A DNA stretch of 52,676 bases, from positions 1 through 52,676 of the forward strand of contig CAZOLF010000001.1 in NCBI GenBank assembly GCA_964580855.1. The letters run 5' to 3'. A program made the translations under genes and the position numbers. The stretch comes from an uncultured Candidatus Saccharibacteria bacterium (lineage in GTDB: Bacteria > Patescibacteriota > Minisyncoccia > Phycocordibacterales > UBA9973). This document shows, in pieces, positions 24,189 to 50,760 of the stretch (positions within the stretch are counted from its first letter, which is position 1; each line of letters opens with the position of its first letter). The notes beneath the pieces are model-generated. The model had not been told where the DNA came from. It did not search any database and worked only from the letters and a program-made list of their open reading frames with translations.

Positions 24189-25457
24189 TTATTTATATAA
24201 ATTATAAAAATCTTTACTGGTTCCACCAACTTTCAATGGACCAAATGGATTTTTGAATCCTCCACGTACCTCAAAATGTAAGTGGTTACCTGTAGACTTT
24301 CCAGTAGAACCAACTTTACCGATCAAATCACCTTGATTCACAACTTGTCCGGCAACTGCAGTAACAGAACTCATGTGGGCATAAAGAGCCTGACTACCAT
24401 CTGGAGAGTTGATGACAACATAAAAACCGTATCCTCCATTATATCCTTGACCATCGGCGATCAAAACTTTTCCTCCTTTTACTGCATAAATATCTGTACC
24501 TTTTGGTGCACGCAAATCAAAACCATTACCATGGTGTAGACCTTGAGAAGCACTGCCGACCCCTGCTGGGAAAGGCCATATGTATTCTCGGCCTGACCCT
24601 GTATCCAAAGATGAGGGCGTTGGATTTTGCGGTTCTTGGCTTTCCGGTTGATCTATAAATTCTTCTTCATCTTCTGTTAGAGCTTCTTTCTTGGCAACCA
24701 CATTTACTTCCTTTTTAGCCTTATCAGCCTTATCCATCTTTGCGACGGAGCTTGCATCAAGGCCCGGAAGGATAATTGTACTGCCAGACTTCAAATCACT
24801 CGCCTTTGAAAGAACATTAAATTTCAACAAATCATTAGCTGAAATTTTATACTTCTTCGATATACTCTCCAAAGTGTCGCCCTTCTTTACTGTATAGGAC
24901 GAACCTTTCAACGGCACTATTGTCAAAATTTGGCCTTCTTTAGTTAATTCGCTTCGTGGAATATCACTATTGGCATATATAATAGCGGCTTTTGAAACCT
25001 TCATTGATTTGGCAATACTGTCCAATGTATCACCCTTCTTAACAGTATAGATATCAATCTTTTCGTCAGAAGAATATCTTTCTAAGTCAGTATCTATATC
25101 AAGTGGCCCTGTGTATACCTCCATCGCTTGATCCTCAACTATGGCCATTGCCACAATTTCGGACTCTGGTTTAAGGTCGTGCCTTAAGGATGGAACCAAT
25201 AAAGGCATTGTTTGGAGGTTATAGTTACTTTCAGGAGTAGGTTCAGACGCTTGTGAATATGAACCAAAAAGCCCTGAAACAAAGGACATAAATCCAGCAT
25301 TAGCATTCATAGGAGCGAAAACAAGGGAAAAAGCCACAGCAAATGTGGTTAGCCCTTTCAGCAAATAATGCTTATATAATAAAGATATTTTAGACACAAA
25401 GGCATTTTTATGCTTCAAAATGCTCGGAGTGACTTTTTGAGTTTTGTTTTCTTTCAT
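24189..25457 (-). CDS. LysM-domain M23-family peptidoglycan metalloendopeptidase
   Basis: Two LysM repeats (YTVKKGDTLDSIAKSMKVS..., YTVKKGDTLESISKKYKISANDLLKFN) and M23 motifs HHGNGFDL (HxxxD) and GNHLHFEV (HxH). N-terminal anchor or signal. Confidence 0.9.
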   Translation of the reverse strand: MKENKTQKVTPSILKHKNAFVSKISLLYKHYLLKGLTTFAVAFSLVFAPMNANAGFMSFVSGLFGSYSQASEPTPESNYNLQTMPLLVPSLRHDLKPESEIVAMAIVEDQAMEVYTGPLDIDTDLERYSSDEKIDIYTVKKGDTLDSIAKSMKVSKAAIIYANSDIPRSELTKEGQILTIVPLKGSSYTVKKGDTLESISKKYKISANDLLKFNVLSKASDLKSGSTIILPGLDASSVAKMDKADKAKKEVNVVAKKEALTEDEEEFIDQPESQEPQNPTPSSLDTGSGREYIWPFPAGVGSASQGLHHGNGFDLRAPKGTDIYAVKGGKVLIADGQGYNGGYGFYVVINSPDGSQALYAHMSSVTAVAGQVVNQGDLIGKVGSTGKSTGNHLHFEVRGGFKNPFGPLKVGGTSKDFYNLYK

Positions 25458-38298: not shown

Positions 38299-38395
38299 AT
38301 AATAATCATATTATAGTAGGTACCAAAGTCAAAGTAAAGAAAACAATTACAATCTATATGTTAATTTAAACAAATGTTTGGTATAATTCCCACAT

Positions 38396-39304
38396 ATGAG
38401 CATACAAGCGTATCTACCTAGCAAATCATTTGGACTAAAAATTTTAATACTTTTAGTTGTTGTTCTTGTTGCTGGGTCACTTTATATATTCAAGCCCTTT
38501 AGTAAAGAAAATGCTCCATCCAAACTTGCCATAAAAATTAATGCGAATCCAGAAATGACCCTAGGGGATTTAATCACAACAGATAGTAACAAAAATTCTA
38601 TCCCAGATTGGGAAGAAACACTGTGGGGACTTGATCCGGAAGGTGATGGAGTAAGCAACAAAGCTATAATTGATTCCAAAAAGGCTTTGAGCGCCCCAGT
38701 TGACGAAGAAATCACAGATGGGACAGACCCAAGTGATAACTTAGCTAAAAAGCTCTTCGGAACAATCGTTTCCTTGAATCAAGTAGGGGAATTAGATAGC
38801 CAGACAATGGCATTAATATCTGCTGATGCAAGTGCTGAAGTGATAAACACAGACTTGGAAGATACATACAAGGCGGGGAACCTAAAGACAATAATCTCCA
38901 ACAAGACTAACTTGAGGAATTATCAAACTGCTGTAGGAAAAATAGTCGATAAATACGAGAATAGTAGTATTGGGGAAGAGTTAGCCATAGCTGGAGAAGG
39001 TGTTGAAAACGAAGACACGGAGACCCTGAACAAACTGGAGACGATATCACTGGATTACAAAAATTTAGCCTTAGATTTATCGCACGTAACAGTCCCAAGG
39101 GGGATTGCAGGATACCATCTAGATCTTATAAATTCTTATGACAAAATAGGGACAGCTCTTGAGCATATTATAGAATCAGTTGAAAATCCACTAGTAGGCC
39201 TAAGCGGGACCGGAATGTATAATAGATATGTACTAGAATCTGAAGAAGCTATCAATATGATAGAGGAAAATCTTATCGCAAATGGTATAATACAACAGGA
39301 ATAA
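38396..39304 (+). CDS. Hypothetical membrane-anchored protein with a degenerate Asp-rich (thrombospondin-type-3-like) motif
   Basis: N-terminal anchor LKILILLVVVLVAGSLYIF. TTDSNKNSIPDWEETLWGLDPEGDGVSN resembles D-x-D-G-x-x-DWEE Ca-binding repeats. TGG-TATAAT (38379-38387) lies 8 nt before the ATG. Confidence 0.7.
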   Translation: MSIQAYLPSKSFGLKILILLVVVLVAGSLYIFKPFSKENAPSKLAIKINANPEMTLGDLITTDSNKNSIPDWEETLWGLDPEGDGVSNKAIIDSKKALSAPVDEEITDGTDPSDNLAKKLFGTIVSLNQVGELDSQTMALISADASAEVINTDLEDTYKAGNLKTIISNKTNLRNYQTAVGKIVDKYENSSIGEELAIAGEGVENEDTETLNKLETISLDYKNLALDLSHVTVPRGIAGYHLDLINSYDKIGTALEHIIESVENPLVGLSGTGMYNRYVLESEEAINMIEENLIANGIIQQE

Positions 39305-39305
39305 A

Positions 39306-41717
39306 ATGTATACATCTTTTGTTAAAAATATCATAGTAATTTTTACAATCATTGGAATATTCATATCTCCTATTCAAATTACTTTCGCGGACACAATTGT
39401 AGACTTAACAGATAATTCAATTGATCCAAACACAGGGACAAACAATTCCGGCCAAACTCCAGGAGGGGAGACGGTAGCTAAAATCTCTGAAAAGTATGCT
39501 GGTTACGACAAATTGATTGGTTGTAAAAACGTCAGTAGCAGACTACTAGGAACACGGACCCTAGATGCATTGAACCGAATAGTTCCCTCCAATAAATCAA
39601 AAACAAATGCAAAAACATCCCAAGAAGTAACAAAAACCATTTTAAACAAAAACGGAGAGGCAATCCCTGTATACAATGAAGAACTCGCAAAAATAGCCGC
39701 CGACCAAGCTGCCACTAAAGCACTTGCTGAAAAGGAAGACGCCAGAGAAGAATGTCTAAATGGGCTATCTTACCGTATTGCAAAATTTTCTCTAGGCCAA
39801 ATCACAGACAAAACAGTCAACTATATAAATACTGGATTCAAAGGCGACTCATTTATCCTAAAAGACCAAAATTCCTACTTTTCCAGCTTGGAAAACAATG
39901 AAGCAGACCAGATCCTTGGTATTATTGGTAAATTCAAAAATAGGAAAGACTATCCTTACGGAAGGGAGTACGCGAGATCATTTTTAAATAACAGAATCAA
40001 TACATACGACTCCCGATCCCGATCTAGCATGACTTTTTTCCTTCCCAACGGAAATACAATACAAGATTATTCCAATGACTTTAGCAAGGGCGGATGGAAT
40101 GCTTGGTTTGGTTTAACACAGAACCCGCAGAACAACCCACTTGGCTTCGGGTTAATAACATCCGATGAGATAGCAAAGCGAAGCGCCAAAGCAACCCAAG
40201 AAGCTCTGAATGAACTTAACTGGGGAGATGGATTCCTCAGCCAAAAGAAATGCGTAAAACCCGAGGACTACACCGTAAGAAATAAAAAGAAAAATCCTTG
40301 CGTAAGATGGGAAACTGTAACTCCAGGAACAACAATCACTAACCAGCTCAACAAAGTTCTTGGGTCCCCTATAGACCAACTTGTAATGGCTGATGAAGTC
40401 AACGAATCGCTTTCTCAAGTTTTCGATGCGCTTATCAACCAAGCGATGGTATTTGGAGTAAGTAAAATCAAAAATAAAAAGAAGATAAACATCTCAGACA
40501 CTTTTGGAGGACCAGGAGAAAACAGGGTCTACGACAGTTTCGGGAATGATATTACAAGCACTTTCACAAGCTCGGCAAAAAGTGGATTATTTGGTGTCCC
40601 TGTCACTGGTAATTGGTATGATTCCAACTCGACATTTGATATCACAAAAGATTTAGCCAAAGTTATTAAAGACCAGACAAATTACTTAGAAGTATTGAAA
40701 GAGTCCGAAAAAGTTTTGCCAGAAATTGCCTATAGTATGCGCGAACTCGACTACTGTCTCCCTGGACCTCACCCAGGATGGGAAGCTAGCACCTATTCAA
40801 AAATCCAAGATTACATAGACTTCTTAAACGACACATCTGTTGATGCGGAAGGAAATGTGATTGTCCCTGAAGGAGCATATGAGCCAGGTTGGGTTACAAC
40901 AACGTTTGGAACACTTGGTAGTATTGGTGGCATGGTGGGCGGACCTGCAGGTTATGCACTACAAGGAATGACTATGATTCAAGGAGCAATCTCAAAAAAT
41001 AACCAAAGGAAAGACTCCGAAATGGTAGATAGAATCCAAAGGGTTGCTGATGCAGAAGAGAACCTAAACGAACACCTGCTAAGATACTCACAAATTATCA
41101 AACCAGAACTACTAGAAAGACAATTTGATGAATATCGAACTGAAATCTATAATCGTTATGGTGAAAACCTATACGAAAAAAATATTCCAGGGGCTTTAGA
41201 CATGCTAGCTCAACTCGATGGGATAGATTCCTTGGCAGAGACACTAGATGATTCATCGAGTGAGTATAGTGACACTATTAATGAAACAACATTAAACATT
41301 GCGAAGTTGAAAAGTATCCAAAGACAAGTGGCACAAATAATGTCTCAAAAATATGTAAAAGATCAAAGAGTTATCTGTGCGGCACAAGGCTTGCCAAACA
41401 ATCCAGGGAATAGTGGCTTGGTATCTAACAGCACAACTGGAACAAACTCTCCAAATTGTTCTATCACAAAACTTACATCAAAAACTCCGGTCACTAACTT
41501 TGACTCAAGTACTAAAAAAGTTTCTGCAAACACCCAAGTCATAGTTGCCTGGGAAACAGATAATTGTACAAATATATCAATCCCTGGGGTTGGTTACGGA
41601 TTGCCAAGCTCTGGGTCTAAAAATGTATACCCAAATGTAACTAATACATATAAATTAATAGCAAAAAATAGTGTCAGCTCTGATAACAAATCAATAACCG
41701 TTGAAGTAACCCCTTAA
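39306..41717 (+). CDS. Hypothetical 803-aa secreted protein
   Basis: Signal peptide MYTSFVKNIIVIFTIIGIFISPIQITFA. Starts 1 nt after the previous stop. The C-terminal ~90 aa look beta-rich and Ig-like. No family recognised. Confidence 0.8.
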   Translation: MYTSFVKNIIVIFTIIGIFISPIQITFADTIVDLTDNSIDPNTGTNNSGQTPGGETVAKISEKYAGYDKLIGCKNVSSRLLGTRTLDALNRIVPSNKSKTNAKTSQEVTKTILNKNGEAIPVYNEELAKIAADQAATKALAEKEDAREECLNGLSYRIAKFSLGQITDKTVNYINTGFKGDSFILKDQNSYFSSLENNEADQILGIIGKFKNRKDYPYGREYARSFLNNRINTYDSRSRSSMTFFLPNGNTIQDYSNDFSKGGWNAWFGLTQNPQNNPLGFGLITSDEIAKRSAKATQEALNELNWGDGFLSQKKCVKPEDYTVRNKKKNPCVRWETVTPGTTITNQLNKVLGSPIDQLVMADEVNESLSQVFDALINQAMVFGVSKIKNKKKINISDTFGGPGENRVYDSFGNDITSTFTSSAKSGLFGVPVTGNWYDSNSTFDITKDLAKVIKDQTNYLEVLKESEKVLPEIAYSMRELDYCLPGPHPGWEASTYSKIQDYIDFLNDTSVDAEGNVIVPEGAYEPGWVTTTFGTLGSIGGMVGGPAGYALQGMTMIQGAISKNNQRKDSEMVDRIQRVADAEENLNEHLLRYSQIIKPELLERQFDEYRTEIYNRYGENLYEKNIPGALDMLAQLDGIDSLAETLDDSSSEYSDTINETTLNIAKLKSIQRQVAQIMSQKYVKDQRVICAAQGLPNNPGNSGLVSNSTTGTNSPNCSITKLTSKTPVTNFDSSTKKVSANTQVIVAWETDNCTNISIPGVGYGLPSSGSKNVYPNVTNTYKLIAKNSVSSDNKSITVEVTP

Positions 41718-41725
41718 ATAATTTT

Positions 41726-44700
41726 ATGGAAAACAAACCCGAACAAACAAATCGATTTAAAGCTCTTTTAAAAAATAAGGCTTTTATAATTACTTTCATA
41801 GTATTCTTAATCCTTTTGATTGTGGGATATTTTGTAATTAAGAAACAACTTCTAACTCCGAGCGATAGTAACACCGAGGTAAAAAAGTTCACACCATTAT
41901 TTGGAACATCTAAAGAAAAAAATTTAACTTACCAAGGATTTTTAGATTGGGTCAGCAATGGGGGGAGTGACGGAGGAGATGACCTGAGAAATACCGTAAG
42001 AAATATACTAAACGGGGGAAGTACCGGATCCGATACTGGCGGAGATTCTAGTGGGGCAACGAACGGGAGTGGTAGTGGGGGAAGTGGAAGTGGTGGAGGT
42101 AGCGGAAATGAAAGTCTAAATGTTGGAATACTGGATGCTAACTCAATAAATCTTAGTGGGTCGGGGGTAACAGCTGGAGCAGATGGCTCAAATAGTGTAA
42201 CAATTAGTGGGTCGGGGGTAACAGCTGGAGCAGATGGCTCAAATAGTGTAACAATAACCAATGCTGATGGATCAAGCTCGGTAACAATAACAGGTCCTGG
42301 TGTGACAATTGATCCGACTAAAGCAAATACTGTAAAGATCACCGGCCCAGGTATTACAGTTACAAACAACGGAACAAATGGAGTCACACTCACAGGAAAT
42401 GGCATCAACACAGGACGATTAATAGGAACGGGTACAGGTACTGGAACAGGGGGAAGTACCTCGGGGAACAACACCGGAACTATTGGATCTGGATTAGGTG
42501 TAAATAATTGGGGCCCTAATAGTTATACAAAAACTCAATTCCAATGTAGTGATGGAATCGACAACGACAAAGATAATTTTATTGATGACAGAGATCCAGG
42601 ATGTCATAGCGATTTGAATCCAAACAATCGTAATTCTTTCACGCCAAATGCAAACAATGAGTATGATGTAGGGAGCGGAGGGGACCCATCTTCAGGACTT
42701 TATACTAAAACAAAAAACCAGTGTAGCGACTTCTTGGATAATGACAAAGACGGAAGTATTGATATCCAAGATCCAGGATGTCACAGTGATTACAATGCAC
42801 TTAATCCAAAATCTTTTACTCCCAATTTAAATATTGAAGATAAAGACAACGGTCAAGCTTTCCTTGGATGTATTACATCAAAGGGTGGTTATACAATTTC
42901 TGGAACTTTTGCTGGAGGGGTTGGAACAGGAACATATGAAGGCGGAACTACACTAGGAGGATCCTATACAAATGCCCAAACTGCTGGGGGAACTTATACC
43001 AAAGGAACAACAATTGGAGGAACATATATTCCGTCAACAACCACAAGTGTCAGCGGAACATGGGTTGGAAAACCAATTGCTCCACCACTTGCGCCAGGGG
43101 ACAGTAGTGGAACTTGGTTTGGGAATTGGCTGAATGGAATCGGTAATGGAACATGGGCAACTACAATGGTAGGATCCGGATCTGTCGCCCAGAATAATAA
43201 TGGAACATGGAATGGTGTTGGTGGAGGAGGTAGTACAACAGGAGGAGGAACAACAGGAATTCTAACCGGCGGGACAACTGGAACAACTACAGGAACAACT
43301 ACAGGAGGAACAACTGGCGGAACAGGATTGTTAACTGGAGGCACAACAGGAGGAGGGACAACTGGAGTTATAACAACAGGAGGAACTGGAACAACAACAG
43401 GGTTAACAACAGGTGGAACTACAGGATTAGTGACTGGGACTGGAGGCACAACAGGAAGTGGGACAGGAGCTCTTAGTCAAGGAACATGGGTTGGCAATGA
43501 TAAAGTTAGAACTTTTGTCGGCACAACAGGAAGTGGCACATGGACTACTCCACCAATAACAACCAAAGATTCATACAAAGGGGGGATCACAACTGGAGGA
43601 ATTTTCACTGGAGATGCAAATACAACATACACATCAGGTAAATTTACTCCAAATGCAAAAACTTACTACACAGATGGAAGATACATAAACGATACAATGA
43701 CTGGTGGAACTGTTGTAAACGCAACATACATCAGTCCAACTGGTAAAAAATATTCAGGAGGAACAGTTACAGGCGGAAAGTATACAGGAGGAGTTGTCCT
43801 TGGGGGAAATTATGAAGGTGGCACTCCTGTCGGTGGAACTTATGTAGGAGGCAACCCATCAGGCGGAATATACACTGGGGGAATTGCTACTGGTGGTACA
43901 TATCTAAATAATAAATTTTATACAAACGGAATTGTCACAGGAGGAATTTATAGCTCTGGGACAATCACACAAGGGAGATATTTGGGTGGGACAATTACAA
44001 AGGGTACTTACACAGGCCCACTACCTATAGGAGGAACTTATAGTGGGGGGACATATGTTGGTCCTGGATGTATCGCTCCGGTAAAACCACAGTGTGTGGA
44101 CGGAATAGACAATGACAAGGACGGACTCGTGGACAAAGATGACGCAAGTTGTCACTCAGATTTTGATTCTGCCAACGACTTTAGCTACAAAGAATATATT
44201 GATTCAGAAGATAGAATCAAAGACAAGCCAAACCCAAAACCAATTATTACCAAAACTTACCAATGTGGTGATGGAATCGACAACGACAAAGATACATTCA
44301 AAGACATCGATGATGCAGGATGTCACACAGACCTAACACTTGACCCTACAACTTTTGATCCAAAGATTGGGGACGAAAGTAGAGACTCGACAACTGACAC
44401 TAGTGGACTTTCGTACCAGTGTAGTGATGGGGTTGATAATGACAAAGATAAACTTGTTGATGAAAAAGACCCAGGGTGTCATATTGATTTCGATGCAACA
44501 AATCCTTCAACATATGTAACAACAATCCGAGAAGAGGTCCGTGATTACGTAGACCCAGAACCAAAAGATACAGACCCGAGTGACCCAAGTATCTGTGAAG
44601 AAAAAATTGTGCTAAATGCTGAAGACAGAGCAAAGATGGATCAACTACTTCGCGAATTTTATAGACTTGCTCCAACCCTTGCTACCACAGAGGATGTAGC

Positions 44701-45658
44701 AATAGAAAAACAAAACAAAGCACGCTACACAAGTAGTATCAACACAAATGAAAGGTTAACAAGCCAATGTTATGACGAAGTCACTGATCCAAAAAACCAG
44801 CCGTCAGCATCCAAATCAGGAGGGAAAAAATTTATGCTTGAAAGAGTTCTTGGGTCACCATTTGACGCACAAATGGCTCCAAAATTAACATTGCCTGAGT
44901 CAAAATCATTCTTGCCAAGTTATCAAGGCTCCCCATATGAAAAAACAATATCTGAACCATCAGACGATTTAAAAAATGTTTTCTTCCTTAATATGGCCCC
45001 AGATGCTTATGGCACAAACAAATACGGTGATAGTGACTACGACATCAGAATGAATGGAGCTTTGTTTGCAACAGATGTAAATACTGCTGTCTATCCTATC
45101 GCAATGCGTATTATGCAAGGACTTCACGATGCAGGAATACTCGAATACTATTTCCCTGATGATGCTGCAAACAAAGACCTTGAAACAGTGAAGAAGATAC
45201 TCGCAGACGAAATTGATCAATATATTGCTCACGTTCAACTAACAAGATCATCTTTTAGTAAGGATATGACTGGATTTTCAAACTGGGGAAGCCTCAACAA
45301 TAGTAAATACCCAACCAGTTCAAAGATAGGAACAATCATCGATGAATACTTACACTCAGATGATAAATTAGGCTCAAAACAAAGTGTGGCTACTCGAAAA
45401 GCCCTCAGTGTCCCTTGGATATTTGATGAGCAAGGTGACCCTAACGCAAAACCTTGGTCTCCACAGTATAGTTCGAATACCCCTTGGATTCCTCAGTTAA
45501 CAGGTATCACAAACACAAACACCCCTTGGAAGAGCTACCCTCCAGCGGAACCAGAATATAGATTTTTCTCAGCAGGAGCAATCTCAGAATACTTCCGATA
45601 TGACAGTAAAGTCATCAACCCATTTGAAGAATTCGAGAAATTGTTTAACGTCTGGTAA
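41726..45658 (+). CDS. Giant 1310-aa N-terminally anchored surface protein: Gly/Ser/Thr-rich tracts, GGxY solenoid-like repeats, five Cys-bracketed Asp-rich modules
   Basis: N-terminal TM AFIITFIVFLILLIVGYFVI. See the repeat features below. The antisense Pro-rich ORFs 41929..42474 and 42994..43449 are shadows of GGN codons. Confidence 0.85.
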   Translation: MENKPEQTNRFKALLKNKAFIITFIVFLILLIVGYFVIKKQLLTPSDSNTEVKKFTPLFGTSKEKNLTYQGFLDWVSNGGSDGGDDLRNTVRNILNGGSTGSDTGGDSSGATNGSGSGGSGSGGGSGNESLNVGILDANSINLSGSGVTAGADGSNSVTISGSGVTAGADGSNSVTITNADGSSSVTITGPGVTIDPTKANTVKITGPGITVTNNGTNGVTLTGNGINTGRLIGTGTGTGTGGSTSGNNTGTIGSGLGVNNWGPNSYTKTQFQCSDGIDNDKDNFIDDRDPGCHSDLNPNNRNSFTPNANNEYDVGSGGDPSSGLYTKTKNQCSDFLDNDKDGSIDIQDPGCHSDYNALNPKSFTPNLNIEDKDNGQAFLGCITSKGGYTISGTFAGGVGTGTYEGGTTLGGSYTNAQTAGGTYTKGTTIGGTYIPSTTTSVSGTWVGKPIAPPLAPGDSSGTWFGNWLNGIGNGTWATTMVGSGSVAQNNNGTWNGVGGGGSTTGGGTTGILTGGTTGTTTGTTTGGTTGGTGLLTGGTTGGGTTGVITTGGTGTTTGLTTGGTTGLVTGTGGTTGSGTGALSQGTWVGNDKVRTFVGTTGSGTWTTPPITTKDSYKGGITTGGIFTGDANTTYTSGKFTPNAKTYYTDGRYINDTMTGGTVVNATYISPTGKKYSGGTVTGGKYTGGVVLGGNYEGGTPVGGTYVGGNPSGGIYTGGIATGGTYLNNKFYTNGIVTGGIYSSGTITQGRYLGGTITKGTYTGPLPIGGTYSGGTYVGPGCIAPVKPQCVDGIDNDKDGLVDKDDASCHSDFDSANDFSYKEYIDSEDRIKDKPNPKPIITKTYQCGDGIDNDKDTFKDIDDAGCHTDLTLDPTTFDPKIGDESRDSTTDTSGLSYQCSDGVDNDKDKLVDEKDPGCHIDFDATNPSTYVTTIREEVRDYVDPEPKDTDPSDPSICEEKIVLNAEDRAKMDQLLREFYRLAPTLATTEDVAIEKQNKARYTSSINTNERLTSQCYDEVTDPKNQPSASKSGGKKFMLERVLGSPFDAQMAPKLTLPESKSFLPSYQGSPYEKTISEPSDDLKNVFFLNMAPDAYGTNKYGDSDYDIRMNGALFATDVNTAVYPIAMRIMQGLHDAGILEYYFPDDAANKDLETVKKILADEIDQYIAHVQLTRSSFSKDMTGFSNWGSLNNSKYPTSSKIGTIIDEYLHSDDKLGSKQSVATRKALSVPWIFDEQGDPNAKPWSPQYSSNTPWIPQLTGITNTNTPWKSYPPAEPEYRFFSAGAISEYFRYDSKVINPFEEFEKLFNVW
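42155..42256 (+). repeat. Near-perfect 51-bp tandem duplication (2 copies)
   Basis: agtgggtcgggggtaacagctggagcagatggctcaaatagtgtaacaat occurs at 42155 and again at 42206. Encodes SGSGVTAGADGSNSVTI twice. Confidence 0.9.
42542..42790 (+). repeat. Cys-bracketed Asp-rich modules 1-2 (24 aa each)
   Basis: QCSDGIDNDKDNFIDDRDPGCHSD (42542-42613) and QCSDFLDNDKDGSIDIQDPGCHSD (42719-42790). Confidence 0.85.
43216..43470 (+). repeat. Gly/Thr low-complexity tract
   Basis: GGGGSTTGGGTTGILTGGTTGTTTGTTTGGTTGGTGLLTGGTTGGGTTGVITTGGTGTTTGLTTGGTTGLVTGTGGTTGSGTG. Confidence 0.85.
44090..44488 (+). repeat. Cys-bracketed Asp-rich modules 3-5
   Basis: QCVDGIDNDKDGLVDKDDASCHSD (44090-44161), QCGDGIDNDKDTFKDIDDAGCHTD (44261-44332), QCSDGVDNDKDKLVDEKDPGCHID (44417-44488). 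Module 4 shares gatggaatcgacaacgacaaagata with module 1. Confidence 0.85.
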
Positions 45659-45660
45659 TA

Positions 45661-45699
45661 AAAACCATCCCCCACCAAATTGGTGGGGGATGGTTTTTA
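45661..45699 (+). terminator. Strong intrinsic terminator
   Basis: Perfect 17-bp stem: aaaaccatcccccacca (45661-45677) pairs with tggtgggggatggtttt (45681-45697). Confidence 0.85.
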
Positions 45700-45750: not shown

Positions 45751-45759
45751 TGCTATAAT
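45751..45759 (+). promoter_or_regulatory. Extended -10 element of leaderless type for the T4SS-like operon
   Basis: TGC-TATAAT lies 8 nt before the ATG at 45768. The -35 is weak. Confidence 0.45.
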
Positions 45760-45767
45760 ACAAAGGC

Positions 45768-48554
45768 ATGAAGAGACTAGGTTCGTACATTCTTATATTA
45801 CTTATATTAGTGAATATCTTCGCACCTTTTAGTGTATTTTTAGACGAGAATAAAAATATAAATATTGAAAAGACCATCGCGAATGCTGCAAGCCTTGCAG
45901 ACCCTAAAGATGAAGCAATGAGGCAAGTTGCAAAGAAAGAATGTCTTGAAACAGAACCTGACCCAAAAGGCCCACCTGTAGAATTTTGTCTGCAAGCAAG
46001 ATATGAAGCAAACGGGACCAAGGTTGTAATAAAAGCTTACACCATAGGGATTAACCGGGGAGGAAAAGATACTTACTTCGTAAAAATTGAGATCAAAGAT
46101 AGCCTTCAAAAGATAGTAAGAACTCTTGTTACTACTTTTGGATCAAGCGAAATAGATGAAAAAGATGTATCCTCCGATCAAGGCATCGAAGCTAATTACA
46201 AAAATGCTGACAAAACTATTCCGTGGGATGGACGAATGTTTACATCTGATGAGATTGAATTAAATGCAAATGAAAGCTACAGCTTCGATGTATATGTCCA
46301 AAAAAGTGACATGAACAGCACAACATGGACGAAAACTTTTCCATTAAAATTAACGATTGGGGGAAGTGGAACCAGCTCATCTGGAAGCACTGATGTCACA
46401 ACTTCTGCTCCTTCCGGCGAAGAAGATGTACTTCCAGATTGTGTATTCGCTCATCCTGTGGACGGAACGATTATGGGTTGTGTTGCTCAAGTAATATACT
46501 ATGCGGTCTTTGTGCCGACATCGTGGTTATTTGGAGCTTCTGGAATGTTCTTTGATTATATTTTTGCTTATTCAATCAATGACACTACATACAGATCCCA
46601 ATTCGTAACAGAAGGTTGGGGCATAGTTCGAGATTTGTGCAATATTTTCTTTATATTTATACTTTTATATGCAGCCTTCAAAATGATTCTTTCGATCGGA
46701 CATGACTCCAAAGGAATTATCATAAGTGTTATTATTATCGGCCTCTTGATCAATTTCAGTCTTTTTGCTGGACAAGTAATGATTGACGCTTCCAATATTT
46801 TAGCCAGATTATTTTACAACTCTGAGGCTCTCAAGGTTACGGTTACAGGGGACACAGGCAAGGTGATGAAGGGAGGTGCTGTTGTGTATGAAGAAGGGCG
46901 AGGAGGCCATATTCCAATATCCGCTGCAATTATAAACAAGGTAAACCCACAAAATATAATTATTGGGGCAAGAAAAATTTCGCAAGTCACTCTTGATGAT
47001 GGCCAAGTTGGAAGTGGATCTATAGATACAAGTGGAAAAACAAATATAAATACAGATCAAGCCAGCATGGGTGCTGGGTCATTCCTCCTTATTACTGTAC
47101 TTGCGACCATAATCAACGTTGTCGGTATTGTGGTATTCCTTTCTGTCGGGTTAATGTTCGTCGGAAGAATTATTGGTCTATGGTTTGCAATGATTGTCGC
47201 TCCGCTTGCATTCCTAAGCTATACAGTACCCAACATGCGTGATATGGAATTCGTCGGTTGGAAAAAGTGGTGGCCAGAAACTCTCAAGCTTGCATTCCTT
47301 GCTCCGATATTTATGTTCTTTATGTATTTGATGATAATGTTCCTTGAAAATGGTTTCAAGGTTATCGAAAAGGCGAGTGCTGGACCAAACTGGGCTCTCG
47401 AAACTATGATCCCATTTATCTTCATAATGGTATTCCTATTGATGGCAAAAAAGGTGGCCAAGGGATTATCCGGAACAATCGGGCAAACTATTACAAAAGG
47501 TGTAGCTACGACTGGAGCATTGGCGCTCGGAGGAGCGGCGATTGGTACTGGGTTACTATTACGCAAAGGAATTGGTCAAACTATGGCCAGAGCTTCTCGT
47601 GGAGAAACTTTAACGCAAAGATATGAAGCTGGAACAAGTAAGACACTCTTCGGGAAAGGGGTTGGTTGGGCTGGTTCTAAACTAGGCTTAGGTAAAGTAT
47701 TTGGTAATACTTATGATGTAAATACCAGAACAATAGATAGTGGACTAGGAGGTAAACTAAACAGAACACAGCATGCTGTTGAACATGCGGACCATGCAAA
47801 ACAGGAATTAAAGGAAACAAAAGAAAAAGCACACATTACAGTTGACGATCATATGCTTTCAGGAGAGGATGCACAAGCAATGCAGAGAGCCTATGGTAAA
47901 ACTAAAAAGAGTGAATTTGAGGCTGATATTCGAAAAGGTAATGTCAAAGGAATTGACCCTAAAACTGGTGAACGAACAAAAGATATAAGCGAAGACGGTT
48001 ACAAAGCTGCAAACAGAGCCCAAGCCAGTGTAGATGCTGAAGCAGAATACCGAACAGAAAATAAGATTCCTGCTGGCAAAAAACTAACTGCTGATCAGAA
48101 CAAACAAGTTGAAAAAGCAACGGAGAATAAATTAAGTAGTGATTATAATACAAAAGTTTTGAAAGTTGAGCTCGACAAGAAAATTGCTACGGACTTCAAA
48201 AATGTTCTTGACACGGCAAGAGCAGGAGCAAACGTATTTGATAGAGTTATTGCAGGTGCAAATAAATATAGCTTCGATGCAAGAAAACTATCGGAAGTAA
48301 AAGCAGACAAGCTCGCTCATCCTCTAGTGAAGATGGGTGCAGGCGCTATCGCAGGTATTGCTATGGGTGTTCGTATGGGAATGAATCATGGAATCGGAGC
48401 AGACCAAGGTAAAGCCACAGGTGATGCAATGAAAGATCTAGGTAATCTAATCAAAGATTCATTGAAAAATCTAAAAGTAGAAGTTAAGATCCCTGAAAGT
48501 AGCGGAGGCGGACATGATGACCACGGAGGTGGCGGGGGAGGTGGACATCACTAA
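45768..48554 (+). CDS. VirB6/TrbL-like polytopic membrane protein with large N-terminal ectodomain and charged C-terminal tail (928 aa)
   Basis: Signal/anchor, beta-rich domain of about 200 aa, about 7-8 TM segments (VIYYAVFVPTSWLFGASGMFFDYIF..., IFFIFILLYAAFKMIL..., IIGLWFAMIVAPLAFLSY...), Lys/Glu-rich tail ending SSGGGHDDHGGGGGGGHH. Topology and position next to PrgI/VirB4 suggest a VirB6 analogue. No sequence search was run. Confidence 0.55.
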   Translation: MKRLGSYILILLILVNIFAPFSVFLDENKNINIEKTIANAASLADPKDEAMRQVAKKECLETEPDPKGPPVEFCLQARYEANGTKVVIKAYTIGINRGGKDTYFVKIEIKDSLQKIVRTLVTTFGSSEIDEKDVSSDQGIEANYKNADKTIPWDGRMFTSDEIELNANESYSFDVYVQKSDMNSTTWTKTFPLKLTIGGSGTSSSGSTDVTTSAPSGEEDVLPDCVFAHPVDGTIMGCVAQVIYYAVFVPTSWLFGASGMFFDYIFAYSINDTTYRSQFVTEGWGIVRDLCNIFFIFILLYAAFKMILSIGHDSKGIIISVIIIGLLINFSLFAGQVMIDASNILARLFYNSEALKVTVTGDTGKVMKGGAVVYEEGRGGHIPISAAIINKVNPQNIIIGARKISQVTLDDGQVGSGSIDTSGKTNINTDQASMGAGSFLLITVLATIINVVGIVVFLSVGLMFVGRIIGLWFAMIVAPLAFLSYTVPNMRDMEFVGWKKWWPETLKLAFLAPIFMFFMYLMIMFLENGFKVIEKASAGPNWALETMIPFIFIMVFLLMAKKVAKGLSGTIGQTITKGVATTGALALGGAAIGTGLLLRKGIGQTMARASRGETLTQRYEAGTSKTLFGKGVGWAGSKLGLGKVFGNTYDVNTRTIDSGLGGKLNRTQHAVEHADHAKQELKETKEKAHITVDDHMLSGEDAQAMQRAYGKTKKSEFEADIRKGNVKGIDPKTGERTKDISEDGYKAANRAQASVDAEAEYRTENKIPAGKKLTADQNKQVEKATENKLSSDYNTKVLKVELDKKIATDFKNVLDTARAGANVFDRVIAGANKYSFDARKLSEVKADKLAHPLVKMGAGAIAGIAMGVRMGMNHGIGADQGKATGDAMKDLGNLIKDSLKNLKVEVKIPESSGGGHDDHGGGGGGGHH

Positions 48555-50103: not shown

Positions 50104-50760
50104 ATGAAGCTTAATGCGCGTAGAACTCAAGAATTCGTACCGATAAAAGAAATACGAGATGGTATCATAATACTCAAAGACGGGGGACTCCGTTGTGTAC
50201 TTATTGCATCTTCTATCAACCTGTCGCTAAAAGCCGAGGAAGAGCAGAGGGCAATCATAAACCAATTTCAATCATTTTTAAATGGGCTCGATTTTACTAC
50301 TCAGATATCGGTACAATCAAGACGTTTAGACATAAGACCGTATTTATTAAGACTGGAGAATCGCATGCAGGAACAAGTTGAACCTTTGATCAAAACTCAA
50401 ACAAAAGAATATATCGAATTTATCCGAAGGTTTACCGAAGAGGTAAACATAATGACTAAGAGCTTTTTTGTTGTAGTCCCATATAGCGGAGATTCATCTT
50501 CGAATAAAAAAAGTGGAGTTGAAAAACTTCTTGACCTTGGAAGCAGAAGTGAGAAGATGAAAGGAAAGACCAAAAAGGAAGAAGACATGGTCAGCTTCGA
50601 GGAGAAACGCTCCCAACTTGACCAGCGCATCAATGTTATCGTCGAAGGATTGGCAGGGCTTGGAGTTCAGGTTTCGCAATTAAATACAGAAGAAATTATC
50701 GAGCTTTTTTATAAAACATTTAATCCTGGAGATATAAGTCAGGGGATAAAATTGTCATGA
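50104..50760 (+). CDS. VirB4 N-terminal-domain-like protein (CagE/TrbE/VirB-type), translationally coupled to the ATPase ORF
   Basis: TQEFVPIKEIRDGIIILKDGGLRCVLIASSINLSLKAEEEQRAIINQFQSFLNGLDFTTQISVQSRRLDI follows the pattern of the first ~70 aa of long VirB4/TrbE proteins. The stop overlaps the next start (ATGA at 50757-50760). Confidence 0.45.
   Translation: MKLNARRTQEFVPIKEIRDGIIILKDGGLRCVLIASSINLSLKAEEEQRAIINQFQSFLNGLDFTTQISVQSRRLDIRPYLLRLENRMQEQVEPLIKTQTKEYIEFIRRFTEEVNIMTKSFFVVVPYSGDSSSNKKSGVEKLLDLGSRSEKMKGKTKKEEDMVSFEEKRSQLDQRINVIVEGLAGLGVQVSQLNTEEIIELFYKTFNPGDISQGIKLS

Follow-up and report, generated by a model that had tools for sequence, protein, structure and literature searches.

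In the genome of an uncultured bacterium deposited as Candidatus Saccharibacteria (GTDB lineage Patescibacteriota; Minisyncoccia; Phycocordibacterales; UBA9973), three large genes without an assigned function lie directly upstream of the core genes of a type IV secretion system (T4SS). The DNA that was analysed, here called the window, comprises positions 1 to 52,676 of contig CAZOLF010000001.1 (assembly GCA_964580855.1), read on the forward strand, and thus 52,676 nucleotides (nt). The genes are named gA (302 amino acids, aa), gB (803 aa) and gC (1310 aa), and the two genes next downstream gD and gE. The trio is encoded on the + strand with gaps of only 1 nt between gA and gB and 8 nt between gB and gC, exactly as an original prediction, made from the DNA letters, had described it, and a similarly tight packing is found in relatives, where the gaps in seven metagenome loci are 0-34 nt and 3-82 nt, respectively. 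All coordinates are collected in Table 1.

Each of the three proteins has one strong hydrophobic segment at the N-terminus (aa 14-32 in gA, 9-27 in gB, 20-38 in gC), in agreement with the anchor or signal peptide that had been predicted for each of them. These Sec signal or anchor assignments are hydropathy calls, by which the segment of gB is signal-like and ends in ...ITFA/DT. The cysteine numbers are even, with 8 in gB and 14 in gC, and gA has none. Judged by these features of the sequences, the anchors of all three proteins and the even cysteine numbers of gB and gC fit an extracytoplasmic location, and the cysteines of the two cysteine-bearing proteins are probably disulfide-bonded. A sortase motif of the LPXTG type (LPxT[GASN]) is present in none of the three.

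Table 1. Features of the gene trio and its neighbourhood (positions in the window)
Feature	Position	Strand	Basis or remark
gUp129, 129 aa	37909..38298	-	N-terminal transmembrane segment or signal (hydropathy); 4 Cys; divergent from gA
Extended -10 promoter element TGGTATAAT, TGnTATAAT type	38379..38387	+	Sequence read; ATG of gA 8 nt on
gA	38396..39304	+	302 aa
gB	39306..41717	+	803 aa
gC	41726..45658	+	1310 aa
Perfect 51-nt tandem duplication in gC (SGSGVTAGADGSNSVTI unit)	42153..42255	+	Tandem Repeats Finder, 2.0 copies, 100% match
gC acidic disulfide repeat 1 (CSDGIDNDKDNFIDDRDPGCHSD)	42545..42613	+	NF033662, regex
gC acidic disulfide repeat 2	42722..42790	+	NF033662, regex
gC acidic disulfide repeat 3	44093..44161	+	NF033662, regex
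gC acidic disulfide repeat 4	44264..44332	+	NF033662, regex
gC acidic disulfide repeat 5	44420..44488	+	NF033662, regex
gC conserved 2-Cys core, aa ~940-1030	44543..44815	+	phmmer domain matches; Cys957 and Cys1015
Intrinsic terminator, 19-bp perfect hairpin, then U5	45659..45699	+	Folding
Extended -10 element TGCTATAAT of the T4SS-core operon	45751..45759	+	ATG 8 nt on, at 45768
gD, polytopic membrane protein, 928 aa	45768..48554	+	N-terminal signal or transmembrane segment, ~5 transmembrane segments between aa 286 and 560 (hydropathy)
gE, 355 aa	48572..49639	+	No transmembrane segment (hydropathy), no family (Pfam/NCBIfam scans)
PrgI/TcpE family (VirB3-like), 134 aa	49643..50047	+	PF12666, 37.7 bits vs cutoff 27
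TrsD/TraC-like, 218 aa, free-standing VirB4 N-terminal-like module	50104..50760	+	NF041427 at 2.5e-9; PF26593 precomputed
VirB4-like ATPase, CD1110 family, 613 aa	50757..52598	+	NF045971, 375.8 bits vs cutoff 325; PF19044

For the comparison with relatives, one genome per species was scanned, by which 178 species with a gB relative were found, and the loci described here are the best 80 of these 178, all from species-level genomes of Paceibacteria/Nomurabacteria, a group of ultra-small bacteria. In all 80 the genes follow each other in the order UvrD, KsgA, gA, gB, a variable gene in the slot of gC, gD, gE, PrgI, TrsD, VirB4, and because orthologues of all three members hold the same positions in these genomes, the open reading frames (ORFs) of the trio are real genes. 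A gA orthologue lies upstream of gB in each of the 78 loci with enough sequence, and the order is identical also in the seven metagenome loci, in which the identity of gB goes down to 25-26%. PrgI, TrsD or VirB4 were present in 54 of the 54 loci that reach far enough, the other 26 ending before that point. The original prediction had named orthologues mostly in genomes without virB4 or prgI as an observation that would speak against a connection with the T4SS, and there was no such case among the 54 informative loci.

The conservation of sequence is very different along this block. The median identity to the respective protein of the window is 83% for VirB4, 65% for TrsD, 60% for UvrD and 55% for both KsgA and PrgI, and then it is 36% for gD and also for gE, 31% for gA and 29% for gB. 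In evolutionary rate, the trio is thus similar to gD and gE, the membrane parts of the T4SS, and much faster than the housekeeping genes.

Behind its anchor, gA possesses a TSP3-like acidic motif and a C-terminal domain that resembles a four-helix bundle (aa ~150-300). The motif reads D71 W72 E73 .. L76 W77 G78. D80 P81, and D71, W72, E73, L76 and W77 are invariant alignment columns in the family. A search retrieved 38 relatives, which together with the protein of the window gives 39 sequences, and a match to PF18884, the bacterial TSP3 repeat, is precomputed for 4 of these 39; the gA of the window itself has no PF18884 match at E<=0.1. The AlphaFold model of gA has a mean confidence (predicted local distance difference test, pLDDT) of 79 and exceeds 90 for aa 150-300, where it is all helical, and neither a fold match (Foldseek) nor a sequence match was found for gA in the PDB.

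In gB, the signal or anchor is followed by a linker of low complexity, then by two regions that are all-alpha and conserved (aa ~120-390 and ~445-695), and at the C-terminus by a beta module that is variable (aa ~730-803). The alignment shows five conserved cysteines (C73, C150, C316, C332, C484), and the conserved motifs of the family include GGWxGW..TQxPQNNPLGF and LDYCIPGP. AlphaFold predicts the helical cores with confidence (aa ~120-350 and ~440-690, pLDDT 75-95) and with long helices. The structure prediction and Foldseek comparison that had been proposed for this protein hence gave a helical core and no significant match: against the PDB and BFVD, as for the gA model against the PDB, only generic long-helix matches appeared (E >0.01, TM-score <0.3), and the gB profile found no match among PDB sequences either. 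A word-indexed search gave 96 relatives, which all belong to Patescibacteria and have no Pfam domain, and a profile search of the same word-indexed protein database added no distant relatives to them. In an exhaustive profile search, 5551 cluster representatives were recovered at E<=1e-3 and 2413 at E<=1e-30, and gB therefore represents a large family without a Pfam model. In tblastn, gB matched none of 72,556 plasmids and none of 50,697 phage records, so that it is not a protein of mobile elements within those sets. Long relatives carry additional C-terminal modules, which are fn3 domains, a SASA esterase or InlB B-repeats, and in 19 of 85 relatives a variable loop contains a strongly hydrophobic glycine-zipper hairpin of about 40 aa, of which the gB of the window has a weak version below the hydropathy threshold (loop at aa ~525-560; hairpin columns at aa 525-557, window ~40878-40976). 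One relative bears the source name 'glycine zipper family protein'.

The third protein, gC, is the most modular one. Its transmembrane anchor is followed by a conserved juxtamembrane region (to aa ~125), by spacers rich in glycine, serine and threonine (aa ~90-260 and ~385-780), by five acidic disulfide repeats, a conserved core with two cysteines (aa ~940-1030) and a C-terminal domain (aa ~1030-1310) that is common to close relatives only. The repeats match NF033662, the acidic double-disulfide repeat, in five copies with 122.8 bits against a cutoff of 41, and the unit reads C-x-D-G-x-D-N-D-x-D...C-H-x-D. This acidic motif suggests that the repeats probably bind Ca2+. The five units of gC resemble NF033662, and gA and its relatives carry the motif D-W-E-E-T-L-W-G-x-D-P, with the matches to PF18884 (TSP3) in four proteins that are given above. 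Short repeats of these types occur in many unrelated surface proteins, and they are modules that do not define the function of a whole protein. The genes in the slot of gC encode between 241 and 1744 aa in the relatives, and a phmmer comparison with the same-slot genes of at least 53 relatives showed two common parts only, the anchor module at the N-terminus and the 2-Cys core; the minimal versions of 241-320 aa share nothing else with gC. Thus of the two general descriptions that had been given of the trio, 'repeat-rich' applies to gC and does not apply to gA and gB, and the absence of a recognisable family is partly wrong, as gC matches a curated family; PF18884 is found in four of the 39 proteins retrieved with gA.

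Apart from NF033662 in gC, scans of the three proteins with Pfam, NCBIfam and PHROG gave nothing, and among PDB sequences neither phmmer nor profile hmmsearch found a match under E = 0.04, with only coiled-coil noise above that value. Homology to housekeeping envelope proteins, which would have contradicted the original prediction, did not appear in any of these searches. Known extracytoplasmic accessory parts of T4SSs, such as VirB5, VirB2 and VirB8, are comparable to the trio in that general respect, but the trio proteins are far larger than pilins. VirB8 combines an N-terminal transmembrane anchor with an alpha+beta fold of the NTF2-like type, and VirB5 is a helical protein. An identity with VirB5, VirB2 or TrbC was rejected for want of any Pfam or NCBIfam match (E<=0.1-1). 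A VirB5/TraC or pilin fold was rejected as well, as Foldseek gave nothing in the PDB at E<0.48 for gA and gB and the top 50 matches contained no T4SS protein. Also the solved structures of VirB5, TraC, VirB8, PrgL and TcpC were not matched by gA or gB in Foldseek or hidden Markov model comparisons. For gA, which has a transmembrane segment as would a VirB8-like protein (PrgL/TcpC/TraM), this assignment was dismissed, since its model, where confident, is a purely helical bundle and not an NTF2-like alpha+beta fold.

The leaderless-type promoter that had been predicted at 38379-38387 is present in front of gA, though the same design is found at other starts in the window. TATAAT followed after 6-11 nt by ATG stands at seven ORF starts (2164, 15843, 17168, 38396, 45768 and 50104 on the + strand, 38298 on the - strand), with a distance of 6 nt at the start of trsD. 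Because of this recurrence at other ORF starts, the leaderless design is a genome-wide style and not specific to the trio, and the sequence suggests that transcription without a leader, or nearly so, is widespread in this genome.

The intrinsic terminator behind gC had been overlooked by a simple pattern scan. Its fold has -33.3 kcal/mol (z = -6.65), and none of 200 shuffled sequences was equally stable. The hairpin is bordered by A5 and T5, and it could therefore work bidirectionally. The strong terminator of the original prediction does exist, but the distance of 70 nt to the T4SS promoter that had been ascribed to it fits only if counted from the stop codon of gC; from the end of the terminator it is about 32 nt to a -35-like TTTAAA (45731) and about 52 nt to the extended -10 element. 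A comparable hairpin after the trio was seen in few relatives only, in a survey that is unreliable as the gene starts cannot be fixed. In at least four relatives (L017, L033, L036, L077) the slot gene stops just 2-11 nt before gD, with gD alignments that start at residue 1, and the gap is 20 nt or less in up to 10 of 53 loci. In such loci there is no room for a terminator, and the trio and the T4SS core are therefore not separate units there.

As to the T4SS core itself, gD is VirB6-like by position and topology only, as it has no match in Pfam, NCBIfam or PHROG, including the profiles of VirB6, PrgH and TrbL. An orthologue of it was found in 63 loci. The C-terminus of gD (near 48500-48551) forms a Gly/His tail, GGGHDDHGGGGGGGHH, which by its composition might bind metal. 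The VirB4 function is split into the 218-aa TrsD-like protein and the 613-aa ATPase, the genes of which overlap by 4 nt, and as all relatives have the same split, it does not stem from a frameshift. The matches of TrsD to NF041427 and to VirB4 N-terminal profiles all stay under the curated cutoffs, and a free-standing TrsD has been described for Patescibacteria (PMC12102498). VirB4 itself varies between 71 and 90% identity across 48 species-level relatives (loci L007-L086) and is thereby more conserved than UvrD and KsgA, which points to an unusually strong constraint for a secretion ATPase.

With VirB4, TrsD, PrgI/VirB3, a polytopic VirB6-like protein and a nearby ksgA, the core of the window agrees with the MPF_FATA-like T4SS of Patescibacteria that has been surveyed by Quinonero-Coronel et al. 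2025 (PMC12102498), as it does in having no relaxase in view. This T4SS is thought to be repurposed in Patescibacteria (PMC12102498). The survey reported no adhesins and few VirB8 or VirB1 homologues, genes without a profile were left unannotated, and families corresponding to gA, gB and gC are not described there. For Saccharimonadia, arrays of VirB2-like pilins have been stressed in a FEMS review (PMC12857230), and no such array was seen in the window. From the same review (PMC12857230) comes the reference to Wang et al. 2023, cited there for the T4SS being essential for growth on the host in Southlakia epibionticum, one genetically tractable species.

A layout of the same kind is known from pCF10 of Enterococcus faecalis. 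In its prgQ operon, the genes of PrgA (891 aa), PrgB (1305 aa) and PrgC (285 aa) are located directly upstream of those of PrgD-H, PrgI and VirB4 (bioRxiv 10.1101/2020.06.18.156562), and the VirB4 of pCF10 is in the same CD1110 family as that of the window. In both cases, three surface proteins of very unequal size, Sec-exported in the trio by prediction, have their genes immediately in front of MPF_FATA channel genes and on the strand of these; one of the three is helix-rich and one repeat-rich. The pCF10 proteins differ by their C-terminal LPXTG anchor, in place of which the trio has N-terminal transmembrane segments, and the window locus is chromosomal, shows no relaxase in view, belongs to an obligate-symbiont lineage, and has another order of sizes. 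Homology to PrgA, PrgB, PrgC or PrgD was rejected, as hhalign probabilities were 0.2-2% and the best BLASTP match covered only the hydrophobic N-terminus. The trio would thus be analogous, not homologous, to PrgA/PrgB/PrgC, in a layout of a kind that is known for monoderm T4SSs. The original prediction had considered the pairing of such proteins with this core as undescribed, which is wrong for monoderm T4SSs in view of pCF10, and it is undescribed only within Patescibacteria.

The surroundings of the trio are those of an ordinary chromosome. Upstream lie genes for DUF5663, UvrD, KsgA and gUp129, the latter with homologues in some relatives only (L002, L004, L007-L011, L051, L076) and of uncertain membership in the module, and the rest of the window encodes a XerC-type integrase, PNPase, GlmS, PGI, a ComM-like Mg-chelatase and a LysM/M23 peptidase. 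This protein with LysM and Peptidase_M23 domains (24189-25457, - strand) is encoded also beside the UvrD-KsgA-trio-T4SS block of relatives, and M23/LysM proteins near virB4 have been counted as VirB1-like in Paceibacteria (PMC12102498). Between 25763 and 34784, five consecutive + strand genes (258, 871, 193, 419 and 1199 aa) encode glutamate- and lysine-rich proteins without family, and they explain the strong AT skew (~0.36) of this region. In contrast to the trio with its extracytoplasmic signature, these upstream neighbours have no cysteines and no transmembrane segments. Relatives have them in poorly conserved form or not at all, and in L087 uvrD comes directly after the gene of the LysM/M23 peptidase. 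Inserts of a selfish type occur in some of the loci, such as a PemK toxin gene between slot gene and gD (L089, 17000-17461) and a gene for a 23S_rRNA_IVP family protein before PrgI (L006, 20128-20487). Locus L040, with a full Paceibacteria-type cluster, is titled 'Burkholderiales bacterium', which looks like mis-binning or a generic label, and the same is likely for the many loci among L011-L076 that are titled 'uncultured Candidatus Saccharibacteria'.

What could the trio be good for? The explanation that accounts best for the data, and to which an even chance may be given, is that it serves the chromosomal MPF_FATA-like T4SS of the Paceibacteria/Nomurabacteria type as an extracellular or adhesin module specific to this lineage. 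It is suggested by the co-location with the T4SS genes, the tight packing, the extracytoplasmic signature, the evolutionary rate, the modular additions of a surface type, the precedent of pCF10, and the adhesin role that is as yet unfilled in these systems. As the trio always lies just upstream of the T4SS genes, its proteins are the best candidates for the missing outer, host-facing parts of the machine. The original prediction of an adhesin, fibre or wall-spanning part is thus in line with the anchors, the cysteines and the co-location, and it is not in line with the lack of likeness to known T4SS parts; nothing was found that would show the trio to replace VirB2, VirB5 or PrgB, to which, as to T4SS components in general, it has no sequence or fold similarity.

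If the trio is such a module, the three proteins would be exported by Sec and inserted with their N-terminal hydrophobic segments, with the bulk of each protein outside the cell. The helical bundle of gA and the large helical gB with its conserved cysteines could form a conserved and translationally coupled base, and gC a stalk of variable length, composed of the G/S/T-rich spacers and the acidic disulfide repeats that probably bind Ca2+. This stalk would end in the small conserved 2-Cys core, with further domains being optional. At the C-termini of gB and gC, the variable modules (Ig- and fn3-like domains, esterase, repeats) may cross the wall and touch the host or partner cell, and these distal modules would then supply the adhesin or outer part that is not accounted for by the known components. 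The quick changes in sequence and length could be an adaptation to the surfaces of hosts. In a stronger version, the three proteins are true structural parts of the T4SS, namely an extracellular stalk/tip complex that has new folds, reaches across the wall and makes contact with the host, and in which the zipper of gB might aid the breaching or docking of the host membrane; this goes considerably further and seems rather doubtful.

Several observations weigh against the trio being a module of the T4SS, and most of them fit just as well to independent envelope or surface proteins that are associated with the wall, linked to an S-layer, or used for host attachment, and that share nothing with the T4SS but an inherited gene order. 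KsgA (72 of 72 loci) and UvrD (61 of 62), which clearly have no relation to secretion, are as strictly syntenic as the trio, so that position alone is weak evidence of function, and the shared synteny is wider still, including the ComM-type Mg-chelatase and the LysM/M23 peptidase. The conserved order may be a frozen chromosome layout of the clade, and the evidence for a linkage of trio and T4SS is purely positional and diluted by this general synteny. In the window, the trio forms a transcription unit apart, with a promoter in front of it and a very strong terminator that closes it, and in L087 and L088 gA overlaps the preceding gene. The loci that reach far enough all come from lineages in which the T4SS lies at this place of the genome. 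There is no sequence likeness of the three proteins to any known T4SS component, nor a fold likeness of the gA and gB models, and a crude test of rate covariation between trio and T4SS genes, from which the housekeeping trend had been removed, gave no signal and is uninformative. Independent envelope proteins would nevertheless be a somewhat unlikely outcome, because the slot gene comes within 2-11 nt of the VirB6-like gene in some relatives, because rate and topology of the trio match those of the T4SS membrane components, and because no known domain of envelope biogenesis is present in the trio.

Two more specific functions are much less probable. One is that gB, maybe together with gA, is a Sec-exported membrane-active factor whose zipper hairpin forms a pore or translocon in the host membrane, with gC as a tether. 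The long helices and the Gly-rich hydrophobic loop, which is a clear zipper hairpin in the 19 relatives mentioned above, agree with this, as does the source name of the one relative, and the weak top Foldseek matches of gB include the alpha-pore-forming toxins AhlB, SmhB and MakA. However, these toxin matches are insignificant (E >0.5, TM-score <0.25), and equal scores are reached by chemoreceptors, SMC coiled coils and tape-measure proteins, so that the toxin matches are generic long-helix matches; the likeness of gB to alpha-pore-forming toxins and to tape-measure proteins was rejected for this reason. As the zipper is also missing from most relatives, is weak in the gB of the window, and could equally lie in the producer's own membrane, such a role is quite improbable. 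A touch less probable still is a surface-exclusion or self/non-self layer that, like PrgA, limits the action of the T4SS among sibling cells. The position is analogous to that of PrgA in pCF10, and the extreme diversity in sequence and length is as expected for recognition determinants, but there is neither homology to PrgA nor a CAP domain, and the data do not separate a role in exclusion from one in adhesion.

A large part of bacterial diversity belongs to the Patescibacteria, and the trio may bear on how their T4SS looks outside the membrane and how it makes contact with the host. The trio is real, well conserved and uncharacterised, and it is plausible that it represents a variant of the surface modules that accompany the T4SSs of monoderm bacteria. 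For the Paceibacteria/Nomurabacteria branch, the three proteins are concrete candidates for the missing part of the T4SS. Should the trio have no link to the T4SS, it would still be a large uncharacterised family of surface proteins of the candidate phyla radiation. Should they be true structural parts, an outer module would be defined for the first time in a T4SS on which an epibiotic lifestyle depends, and it would be the first T4SS outer module that is built of N-terminally anchored and not of sortase-anchored proteins. If the link to the T4SS is true, the trio would provide handles for the prediction of host ranges, for the interpretation of cryo-electron tomography, and for genetics.

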